DNA from: Longimicrobiales bacterium
GTDB taxonomy: Bacteria > Gemmatimonadota > Gemmatimonadetes > Longimicrobiales > Gaopeijiaceae
Reading direction: 5' to 3'
Length of the DNA stretch: 64,000 nt
Assembly (NCBI GenBank): GCA_965202805.1
Contig: OZ241869.1
Coordinates: forward strand, 3,488,001 to 3,552,000
The translations under genes and the position numbers were made by a program. Below the pieces are notes generated by a model that was not told where the DNA came from, did not search any database, and worked only from the letters and a program-made list of their open reading frames with translations. This document shows, in pieces, positions 44,273 through 45,426 of this stretch (its first letter is position 1; each line of letters begins with the position of its first letter).

Positions 44273-45226
44273 ATGGAGACCAGACCGATGGCGAAGAAGG
44301 CACCCGGCAAGCACTTCAGGAAGGGCATAACGCTCGTCGACCTGTTCAGGAGGTTCCCTGACGATGAGGCGGCGGAGCGTTGGTTCGCGGACACGCGATG
44401 GGGCGGAGAGCCCGTGTGCCCGCACTGCGGCTCGATCAACGTCCAGGCAGGCACGACGCACCCTACGATGCCGTACCGCTGCCGTGATTACCGGAAGTTC
44501 TTCTCGGTGAAAACGGGAACCGTGATGCAGTCCTCGAAGCTTGGTCTCCAGAAGTGGGCCATCGCCATCTACCTGCTGGCCACCGGGATCAAGGGCGTGT
44601 CGAGCATGAAGCTCCACCGCGATCTCGGGATCAGCCAGAAGTCGGCGTGGCACCTGCTGCACCGGATACGCGAGTCGTGGGACGACAAGCAGCCGAGGTT
44701 CGCGGGCCCGGTCGAGGTCGATGAGACCTACATCGGCGGCAAGGAGAAGAACAAGCACGCGAAGAAGAAGTTGAGGGCTGGTCGCGGCACGGTCGGAAAG
44801 ACGGCGGTCGTGGGCGCTAAGGACCGTGAGAGCAACCGTGTTGCCGTGCAGGTGATCGAGCACACGGACAAGGCCACCCTACAGGACTTCGTGGACGAGC
44901 ACGCCGATCCAGGGGCGATGATCTACACGGACGGCGCGACAGCGTACGAGGGCCGGGAGCGGCACGAGACGGTTCGGCACAGCGTGGGCGAGTATGTCCG
45001 GGGACAGGCGCACACGAACGGCGTCGAGAGCTTCTGGTCGATGCTGAAGCGCGGATACTACGGCACCTACCACCGCATGAGCCCGAAACACCTCGACCGC
45101 TACGTGAACGAGTTCGCCGGCCGGCACAACATCCGGTGCAAGGACACCATCGAGCAGATGAAGGAAATCGTCCGTGGACTGGACGGGAAGCGGCTGCGCT
45201 ACCGAGAACTCGTGGGTCGACCTTGA
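44273..45226 (+). CDS. IS1595-family DDE transposase
   Basis: Zn ribbon CPHCGS..YRC; HTH KGVSSMKLHRDLGISQKSAW; VEVDETYIGG, IYTDG, HTNGVESFWSMLKR, YVNEF. Confidence 0.97.
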   Translation: METRPMAKKAPGKHFRKGITLVDLFRRFPDDEAAERWFADTRWGGEPVCPHCGSINVQAGTTHPTMPYRCRDYRKFFSVKTGTVMQSSKLGLQKWAIAIYLLATGIKGVSSMKLHRDLGISQKSAWHLLHRIRESWDDKQPRFAGPVEVDETYIGGKEKNKHAKKKLRAGRGTVGKTAVVGAKDRESNRVAVQVIEHTDKATLQDFVDEHADPGAMIYTDGATAYEGRERHETVRHSVGEYVRGQAHTNGVESFWSMLKRGYYGTYHRMSPKHLDRYVNEFAGRHNIRCKDTIEQMKEIVRGLDGKRLRYRELVGRP

Positions 45227-45252
45227 CCGAAGGAAGGCCGAAAGGTTATATT
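45223..45252 (+). promoter_or_regulatory. Putative sigma70 promoter facing the tRNA-like element (sense)
   Basis: TTGACC(45223-28)-N18-TATATT(45247-52), overlapping the transposase stop codon. Confidence 0.55.
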
Positions 45253-45267
45253 GAGGGAATCAGAGCG

Positions 45268-45301
45268 AAAAAGCCCGCCACCGTGGCAGCGGTGACGGGC
45301 T
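45268..45301 (-). terminator. Intrinsic terminator oriented for minus-strand transcription
   Basis: Minus strand AGCCCGTCACCG-CTGCCA-CGGTGGCGGGCT followed by TTTT. Confidence 0.7.
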
Positions 45302-45313
45302 CCTCTCTGGCTG

Positions 45314-45387
45314 GCCCACGTAGCTCAATCTGGACGGAGCACCTGCCTCGCAGCAGAAGGTTGCGGGTTCGAATCCCGCCGTGGGCT
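45314..45387 (+). ncRNA. tRNA-like element with 6-nt anticodon loop (pseudo-tRNA or tRNA mimic) inside the IS
   Basis: Acceptor GCCCACG/CGTGGGC; D-arm GCTC-AATCTGGACG-GAGC; anticodon stem CTGC/GCAG with loop CTCGCA; T-arm GCGGG-TTCGAAT-CCCGC; discriminator T; no CCA. Confidence 0.85.
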
Positions 45388-45397
45388 CTTACAGAAT

Positions 45398-45426
45398 ATC
45401 ATAACGTTTCTGGAGCGCAAGCGCAA
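45398..45426 (-). promoter_or_regulatory. Putative sigma70 promoter antisense to the tRNA-like element
   Basis: Minus strand TTGCGC(45426-21)-N17-TATGAT(45403-398); predicted start near 45391. Confidence 0.6.

Follow-up and report, generated by a model that had tools for sequence, protein, structure and literature searches.

We analysed a 64,000-nt stretch of DNA from a Longimicrobiales bacterium (contig OZ241869.1; hereafter the window) and concentrated on a transfer RNA (tRNA) gene that lies close behind an IS1595-family transposase and has an anticodon loop of six nucleotides. This tRNA is a real gene, and it belongs to a small, sharply defined and recurrent class in which a tRNA body of arginine (Arg) type is combined with an NTCGCA loop, a kept feature and not a sequencing slip. 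The class is specifically linked, both statistically and physically, to IS1595 and IS1-like transposons and, judged from its substitutions, its fold is under selection. The window copy is a passenger gene of a bounded, recently inserted transporter element of the IS1595 family of insertion sequences (IS). Taken as a whole, our reading is that a structure-conserved and selected class of Arg-type N-U-C-G-C-A tRNAs, acting in trans, travels on such elements, and we hold it to be somewhat better than an even bet.

A tRNA gene with a six-nucleotide anticodon loop

The gene was recognised by ARAGORN, by Rfam, from its predicted fold and in alignment with its homologues.

45314-45387, plus strand: Arg-type tRNA with the 6-nt anticodon loop CTCGCA (loop at 45347-45352)

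ARAGORN reported 45314-45388(+) as 'tRNA-??? anticodon (cg)', that is, a two-base anticodon in a 6-nt loop, and the Rfam tRNA model RF00005 matched over the full model (positions 1-71), scoring 56.1 bits where the gathering score is 29. The acceptor stem (GCCCACG/CGTGGGC, 7/7), the D stem (GCTC/GAGC, 4/4) and the stem of the T arm (GCGGG-TTCGAAT-CCCGC, 5/5) are fully paired, while the anticodon stem (CCTGC/GCAGA) contains a C27-A43 mismatch. The variable loop is AGGTT (5 nt), the discriminator is T, CCA is not encoded, as in most tRNA genes of the source genome, and the G3:U70 pair is absent, the pair there being C3:G70. Energy minimisation yields the cloverleaf with the 6-nt loop; in the alternative register (7-nt loop plus 4-nt variable region), as read from the sequence, only 1/5 stem pairs can form. 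In a canonical elongator tRNA the anticodon has three bases and lies in a 7-nt loop, with U33 before it and a purine at position 37; the 6-nt loop of this gene departs from that plan. The first-pass annotation of this DNA had described the same cloverleaf with intact acceptor, D and T stems, the CTCGCA loop, the C-A mismatch, the discriminator T and the missing CCA, and all of this was confirmed; its claim that the loop cannot be a normal 7-nt decoding loop is borne out by ARAGORN, by Rfam and by the register shared across the family.

An ordinary cargo tRNA with a sequencing or assembly error could in principle give the same picture: the genome is a single 4.02-Mb contig, which suggests long reads, and long reads are prone to single-base indels. 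The first-pass annotation had suggested looking for a missing base at 45347-45352, and for a normal loop in reads or homologues. Logan contigs, built independently from two sequencing runs (depth 31 and 55) that share one study and possibly are the reads behind the genome assembly, reproduced the loop unchanged, with 0 differences and 0 gaps over 45150-45550; the contigs of a third run contained nothing matching this stretch. Homologues keep the short loop as well, and the same loop length is found in 29 further genomes from other projects. The chance that the loop is an error is practically nil.

A recurrent class linked to IS1595 and IS1-like transposons

A strict pattern (fixed GAGC, 6-nt-loop spacing, TCGCA, variable loop and T loop, with the anticodon stem unconstrained) was searched in one genome each of 185,579 species and returned 37 loci. 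ARAGORN called 26 of them as 6-nt-loop tRNAs and 2 as tRNA-Ala(cgc), and Rfam called L091 (48 bits); eight loci (L070, L073, L076, L085, L089, L092, L096 and L098) had no ARAGORN call, nor an Rfam call where it was run, and were dropped. The family thus defined extends over 29 further genomes from many phyla, which according to the record titles comprise Solirubrobacterales and other Actinomycetota, Longimicrobiales, Tepidiformaceae, Dehalococcoidia, Caldilineaceae, Poribacteria, Latescibacterota, Acidobacteriota, Bacteroidetes, Alphaproteobacteria, Gammaproteobacteria, Fimbriiglobus, Nitrospinota and others. One member, L086, carries a second tRNA copy (loop ATCGCA, T loop TTTGAAT) that lies outside the reach of the pattern. 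Viral contigs gave 0 matches to the pattern. A search that used no pattern started from the transposase: the protein was compared with 401 genomes of the phylum, 64 of which had a match at E <= 1e-40, and ARAGORN was run on 32 transposase loci (29 from relatives and 3 further loci of the source genome). A tRNA adjoined the transposase in 2/29 loci of the relatives, one of them L046 (the same locus as L077), which provided a second 6-nt-loop tRNA with the loop GTCGCA, and the other L030, with two Arg-like tRNAs that have odd 7-nt loops.

To assess the fold we aligned 31 sequences: the window tRNA, the 29 pattern matches with a tRNA call and the additional tRNA of L086. Standard pairs fill 96.7% of the cells against 74.5% in shuffles (0/500 as high), and pairing falls to 38-50% when the partners are slid by 1-3 columns. 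Both sides have changed in 15/21 pairs and compensatory changes occur in all variable stems; the anticodon stem, with double changes in 5/5 pairs, is 94.7% paired in the 6-nt register. An exact search of the 185,579 species genomes for the window tRNA with a 6- or 7-nt loop returned 0 matches, and the closest matches in 60 relatives, no more than 81% identical, are ordinary tRNAs, so that no orthologue of the window tRNA was available for a comparison with its flanks. In seven informative pairs of related loci, however, the tRNA is 89-100% identical while the 120-nt flanks are 28-88% identical; L082 and L116, identical throughout, were counted as one and left out of this comparison. These substitution patterns indicate that the fold of the class is maintained by selection.

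In order to examine the neighbourhoods, a hidden Markov model built from 8 transposases was searched against all open reading frames (ORFs) of all loci, with the following result.

TCGCA pattern loci of the genome collection: 12/37 with an IS1595-like transposase, 11 of them within 500 nt of the tRNA
Metagenome tRNAs with other 6-nt loops: 1/75
Metagenome matches in the 7-nt register: 0/29
Metagenome matches fitting neither register: 0/16
Ordinary tRNA loci of relatives, two of them from genomes flagged unpublished (G037, G056): 0/19

The family thus has an IS1595-like transposase at 12/37 loci against 1/139 control tRNA loci (Fisher p ~1e-7), the control flanks being shorter (at most 1.5 kb against 2.5 kb per side). 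In the sole control match, L129, the loop reads CTCGTA and the next gene is a tRNA with a UUA anticodon. A transposase of another kind is common to four more TCGCA loci (L065, L074, L083 and L095); among NCBIfam models it fits IS1 best, scoring 52-92 bits and so below the cut-off of 100. The IS1/IS1595 zinc-binding domain was also seen in one of these four. No protein other than transposases recurs as a neighbour across the loci, and the link to the HNH endonuclease gene that the first-pass annotation had drawn is accordingly not upheld. In the plasmid collection, only transposases below 50% identity were found.

At several loci the ends of the element could be drawn, and the tRNA lies inside them.

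Window element: inverted repeats, duplication ATTGCAAA and empty sites
L086: 46-nt inverted repeats (44/46), duplication GGAAAATA; two 6-nt-loop tRNAs, one on each side of the transposase
L063: duplication TTGCATTG
L090: duplication GTACCGCA
L097: duplication ATTGTTTT
L084: element inserted in a palindromic hairpin, of which L082 has the intact form

Inverted repeats are also clear at L093 and L077, with no duplication resolved, and at L067, L079, L091, L030 and L071 the inverted repeats are weak or were not found. Because the target sites are not tRNA genes, the elements carry the tRNA and do not target it. With respect to the transposase, the tRNA is found on either side and on either strand, all four possible arrangements being present.

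Some members stand alone. In several Solirubrobacterales the tRNA lies in a conserved neighbourhood, beside purF (L075, L078 and L087) or beside an aminotransferase gene (L082 and L099), and at L084 a homologous 260-nt tRNA segment is found, inverted, inside an IS1595 element inserted at the site that corresponds to L082. This chromosomal site is thus arranged differently in two Solirubrobacterales species: L084 1343-4467 has the IS1595 element in the palindromic hairpin TGTGACCTGCGTCACA, and L082 2266-2678 the stand-alone tRNA segment.

A number of other arrangements were noted around these genes. At L077 the tRNA lies at the truncated 5' end of an IS1595 transposase gene, and a 19-bp perfect inverted repeat (2424-2570) encloses it together with a 36-nt leader (z 8 against shuffles). 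The idea that the tRNA sits in a hairpin-ended cassette of its own, as in a miniature inverted-repeat transposable element, was rejected, a significant flanking inverted repeat being found in 1/30 members, L077 alone. At L079 (2391-2645), L081 (1863-2701), L080 (2311-2552) and L074 (1649-2557) the 6-nt-loop tRNA lies within clusters of irregular tRNAs, whose members include class-I 'Ser(GCU)' tRNAs that lack the long arm, an 8-nt-loop tRNA (gccg), a 68-nt 'Trp' tRNA and Arg-like bodies with GCC or UAC loops. Many of the 75 metagenome 6-nt loops (among L110-L230) resemble ordinary loops minus one base. In Thermoleophilia, 3/19 IS1595 transposase loci adjoin other irregular tRNAs and 0/19 one with a 6-nt loop; the three are a tRNA with an 8-bp acceptor stem and a UGU anticodon (L290 2492-2566) and two long-arm tRNAs with UAG anticodons (L295 1055-1145 and L300 1174-1261).

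The transporter element and its predicted transcription signals

The transposon of the window spans 43379-47034 (3,656 bp), and its ends start with GGGAATTACATACC. Its features are as follows.

43371-43378: left copy of the 8-bp target-site duplication, ATTGCAAA (flanks compared with empty sites in five same-genus genomes)
43379-43408, plus strand: left terminal inverted repeat, starting with GGGAATTACATACC (local alignment; homologous to the ends of L077, L086, L063 and L090)
43417-43635, plus strand: passenger ORF of 72 aa, no family (ORF list; no Pfam, NCBIfam or PADLOC match)
43595-43867, minus strand: passenger ORF of 90 aa, HNH endonuclease (Pfam PF01844, E 8.8e-11)
43895-44116, minus strand: possible passenger ORF of 73 aa, an uncertain gene, no family (ORF list; no matches)
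44273-45226, plus strand: IS1595-family transposase of 317 aa, zinc ribbon and DDE domain (PF12762, PF12760, NCBIfam)
45465-46316, minus strand: passenger ORF of 283 aa, M48 metalloprotease, LoiP/BepA-like and possibly a lipoprotein (Pfam PF01435, E 4.7e-17)
46413-46991, plus strand: passenger ORF of 192 aa, no family (46543-46734 matches 405-656 of the related element L077)
47006-47034, minus strand: right terminal inverted repeat (local alignment)
47035-47042: right copy of the 8-bp target-site duplication, ATTGCAAA (flanks compared with empty sites)

A first k-mer search for inverted repeats showed nothing clear; local alignment then succeeded, with 35/37 positions identical between 43372-43408 and the reverse complement of 47006-47041. 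The right flank was searched in 19 genomes of the genus and both flanks were then aligned to five loci from five genomes, all of which (5/5) present an empty site with the flanks 6 nt apart (...cagggtga[TCGCGA]aagggtgacc...). The G+C content of ~43130-47050 is 0.48-0.65, against about 0.70 or more on either side. The transposase scores 141.7 bits with PF12762, 31.6 bits with PF12760 and 200 bits with NF033547 (transpos_IS1595; cut-off 75). Members of the IS1595 family duplicate 8 bp of target according to ISfinder, and the element combines a DDE and zinc-ribbon transposase with inverted repeats and a perfect 8-bp duplication, as this family does. Elsewhere in the source genome just fragments of the IS were found, 68-78% identical.

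Since the borders enclose it in 3,656 bp and not in a 1-kb IS, the tRNA is a passenger of a transporter IS. The first-pass annotation had placed it inside an IS; it does lie within the ends, but the IS is far larger than the single transposase unit then envisaged and holds six other ORFs. Among the passenger proteins, PADLOC gave weak restriction-enzyme-like HNH matches (E 2.9e-5 or weaker) and nothing for the other five proteins. The M48 ORF has partial NCBIfam matches well below cut-off and a weak LPAM_1 match. The insertion lies 12 nt ahead of the start codon of a genomic-island integrase gene. This gene (47054-48220, plus strand) encodes a P4-type tyrosine integrase with Arm-DNA-bind_3, Phage_int_M and Phage_integrase domains, and its DNA has well over 100 matching places at 64-94% identity in 17/19 of the genus genomes searched.

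Three predicted transcription signals surround the tRNA.

45223-45252, plus strand: sigma-70-like promoter TTGACC-N18-TATATT, 62 nt upstream of the tRNA and overlapping the transposase stop codon (10/12 consensus matches)
45275-45305, minus strand: intrinsic terminator between transposase and tRNA, a 13-bp stem followed by TTTTT (-29.3 kcal/mol, z -4.19)
45398-45426, minus strand: weak promoter-like site TTGCGC-N17-TATGAT, directed into the tRNA in antisense (3/6 and 5/6 consensus matches)

The putative plus-strand promoter is the sole site that the scanner reports in 44500-46200, where 0.2 would be expected. None of 200 shuffles folds as well as the minus-strand terminator hairpin, which is weaker when read on the plus strand (z -2.3) and has no U tract there. 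All three signals are where the first-pass annotation had placed them. From the two on the minus strand it had built an antisense transcription unit, in which a ~115-125-nt anti-tRNA transcript, running from the promoter to the terminator, would control the tRNA mimic or be controlled by it. Both signals do exist in the window. The minus-strand promoter-like site, its -35 hexamer matching at 3/6 positions only, falls below the scanner threshold; at looser stringency such sites are sparse (13 in 64 kb), and the transposon contains just two, one on either side of the tRNA. Folding of the predicted antisense RNA is good (-64.1 kcal/mol, z -4.1), but this follows from its being the complement of the tRNA and the terminator. 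Further, the terminator is the sole intrinsic one downstream of the convergent M48 gene and is needed there anyway, and it is therefore most simply taken as the end of that gene; the M48 message most likely runs across the tRNA in antisense and stops at 45275-45305. A survey of 30 family members found antisense promoter-like sites in 7/30, antisense terminators in 2/30 and both together in 1/30, the window itself. The conservation that the first-pass annotation had proposed to look for in homologues thus holds for the short loop and not for the antisense frame, which, with the pairing confined to the window, is no property of the tRNA class; a sense/antisense pair or RNA antitoxin would show a conserved antisense promoter and terminator and a discrete antisense RNA, and the two signals occur together in 1/30 members. 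Given how sparse such promoter-like sites are, a short anti-tRNA RNA may nevertheless be made in the window; the regulatory model built on it we regard as very unlikely.

Arginine identity, rival explanations and known systems

The body of the tRNA points to arginine. In the source genome its nearest relative is tRNA-Arg(ACG), and an A after G18G19 is found there only in three Arg tRNAs and the window tRNA; A20 is present in 30/31 family members. The identity set of bacterial tRNA-Arg consists of A20, C35 and G36 or U36, with C35/G36 read by arginyl-tRNA synthetase (ArgRS). Counted from the 3' side, the N-U-C-G-C-A loop has C and G at positions 35-36; counted from the 5' side it gives CGC. The mark of tRNA-Ala, G3:U70, is seen in L094 only among the 31 aligned members. 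In G438, a complete Solirubrobacterales genome whose 48 tRNAs were all read and form a canonical set, complete for Arg and Ala, the 6-nt-loop tRNA equals the host tRNA-Arg(TCT) at 56/58 positions outside the anticodon arm (L231 and L277; our own count), a likeness that points to gene conversion with the host gene or to an exchange of the arm.

Other unusual tRNA genes were seen in these genomes. The source genome has a second irregular tRNA (G000:C1:502083-502165; 82 nt, Rfam 48.5 bits) whose UUA anticodon would pair with the UAA stop codon; there is no IS1595 transposase closer than 6 kb, and a fragment of one is found ~6.2 kb off. About 18 tRNA genes, a large share of the genome's set, are packed into less than 3 kb at G000:C1:2827836-2830698, with similar arrays in relatives (L019 and L006). 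In G438, L245 (G438:C1:2190017-2190112) is a 96-nt Arg-like tRNA call with a long D-arm insert (ARAGORN 'ggag', Rfam 68.3 bits).

In the mechanism that we propose, Arg-type tRNAs with a 6-nt loop would spread between phyla on IS1595 and IS1-like transposons. The window tRNA would be transcribed from its own promoter and processed like a tRNA; because A20 is kept and C-G occupy C35-G36 if the count starts at the 3' side, the host ArgRS would probably charge it. Lacking one base, it would present no normal triplet and would for that reason work in trans: it could decode CGN codons abnormally, through two bases or a frame slip, or it could be an Arg-tRNA that stays outside normal decoding. If such tRNAs are charged and enter the ribosome, mobile elements would be altering host decoding; if not, they would show a tRNA shape retained in nature for another job. 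A bolder version, in which IS1595 and IS1 transposons carry NUCGYA tRNAs on purpose, as working Arg-charged adaptors whose two-base (C-G) anticodon could read CGN without a wobble base or shift the ribosome by -1, or which could alternatively serve as an RNA cofactor of the zinc ribbon common to these transposases, we consider unlikely. Were it true, this would be the first natural 6-nt-loop tRNA family with a function, and a case of a mobile element reprogramming or sensing translation.

Several observations weigh against the reading of a selected, trans-acting passenger. Taken from the 5' side, the loop presents CGC between U33 and A37, the anticodon of an Ala tRNA, which ArgRS should not accept, and the discriminator varies (A 11, G 9, T 6 and C 5 of 31), which is unusual for a set served by one synthetase. 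No second ArgRS was found in the 5 genomes searched, each of which has one clear ArgRS, and the hosts already possess full canonical tRNA sets. The 11 carrier transposases have no fixed CGA or GCG codon, the best column having GCG in 8/11 and L067 being devoid of GCG. Carriage is patchy: at least 7 gains or losses are required to place the 11 carriers on a tree of 45 transposases (9/500 label shuffles are as good), with five carriers in one 15-row clade mixing phyla and several on very long branches of unsure placement. No tRNA accompanies 27/30 IS1595 copies in the phylum and 16/19 in Thermoleophilia, and most relatives of the transposase have none within 1.5 kb. The invariance of TCGCA is imposed by the search pattern and is no evidence in itself. 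Finally, in a metagenome search with a loop-free pattern 75/120 matches fit a 6-nt loop, with very diverse sequences, so that the loss of a single base is not rare.

These points are, in part, what would be expected of a disabled hitch-hiker, that is, a captured copy of tRNA-Arg made harmless by the loss of one base, persisting through the spread of the transposon and having no function: diverse 6-nt loops, complete host sets, a variable discriminator, no transposase codon matching the tRNA and patchy carriage all agree with it. A functionless copy would not, however, be expected to accumulate compensatory changes in all its variable stems, with the anticodon stem paired in the 6-nt register, or to be clearly better conserved than its flanks; the same loop recurs on very divergent transposases and in stand-alone Solirubrobacterales copies with a kept gene neighbourhood, and other 6-nt loops lack the IS1595 link (1/75). 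On balance we judge the hitch-hiker improbable. The tRNA might instead serve the transposon itself, in cis or through the transposase, as a cutting site for RNase P/Z or transcription punctuation in transposon messages, as a portable attachment site for integrases that target tRNA genes or as an RNA bound by the zinc ribbon common to IS1 and IS1595 transposases. The transposase is indeed the sole recurrent neighbour, 11/37 tRNAs lie within 500 nt of it, the zinc-binding domain is common to both linked transposase families, the window element adjoins a P4-type integrase gene and the L077 tRNA is enclosed by a 19-bp inverted repeat. Such a role, to which we likewise assign a low probability, sits poorly with the free arrangement of tRNA and transposase, with the many family members that carry no tRNA, with stand-alone copies conserved without any transposase and with flanking inverted repeats in only 1/30 members.

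A literature search, with most subscription journals outside its reach, revealed no natural family with a 6-nt anticodon loop and no IS1595-borne tRNA-like genes. Passenger-carrying IS1595 elements are themselves well established; Siguier, Gagnevin and Chandler are said to have described in 2009 transporter IS (tIS) of this family, with passenger-carrying groups such as the ISNwi1 type. The window element resembles them in having one DDE transposase with an N-terminal zinc ribbon, ends of the form GG(G)..AT(T)A, an 8-bp duplication and extra genes inside. To our knowledge, the passenger genes described so far in IS1595 tIS encode proteins, whereas the recurrent passenger here is a conserved 6-nt-loop tRNA.

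The natural and selected frameshift suppressors known so far have 8- or 9-nt loops and tRNA-Ser3 has a normal 7-nt loop; the 6-nt loop of the window tRNA is shorter than theirs. In the textbook tRNA the anticodon loop has 7 nt, the natural exceptions with larger loops being the frameshift suppressors. A structure-conserved 6-nt-loop family spreading across phyla on transposons would therefore be a new kind of natural tRNA variant. Work on frameshifting reports that the reading frame can be shifted by a tRNA that engages more or fewer than three bases, and that tRNA-Ser3 performs doublet decoding (PMC12202706, PMC6920855), a likeness to the two-base anticodon that ARAGORN reports for the window tRNA. 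Allo-tRNAs and 'polycistrons of irregular tRNAs' are found near transposon-related and toxin-antitoxin genes, and many irregular tRNAs are possibly unused in translation, according to the available text of Mukai et al. (2017, NAR, PMC5389517). As described there, allo-tRNAs share with our class a non-canonical structure, an origin in soil-type bacterial phyla and an anticodon that does not fit the body, but they have 8/4 or 9/3 acceptor/T-stem arrangements and a long variable arm; the part of that paper available to us contains no mention of a 6-nt loop. The window tRNA, a plain 7/5 class-I cloverleaf with a 7-bp acceptor stem, a 5-bp T stem, a 5-nt variable loop and the 6-nt loop as its sole defect, was accordingly not assigned to the allo-tRNAs. 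The Dada DNA transposons of animals, in the accessible portion of their description (PMC8869645), are likewise DDE transposons specifically associated with tRNA genes, into which they insert, often at the anticodon loop, and which they disrupt; the window tRNA, in contrast, is intact and lies inside the element, whose target sites are not tRNA genes.

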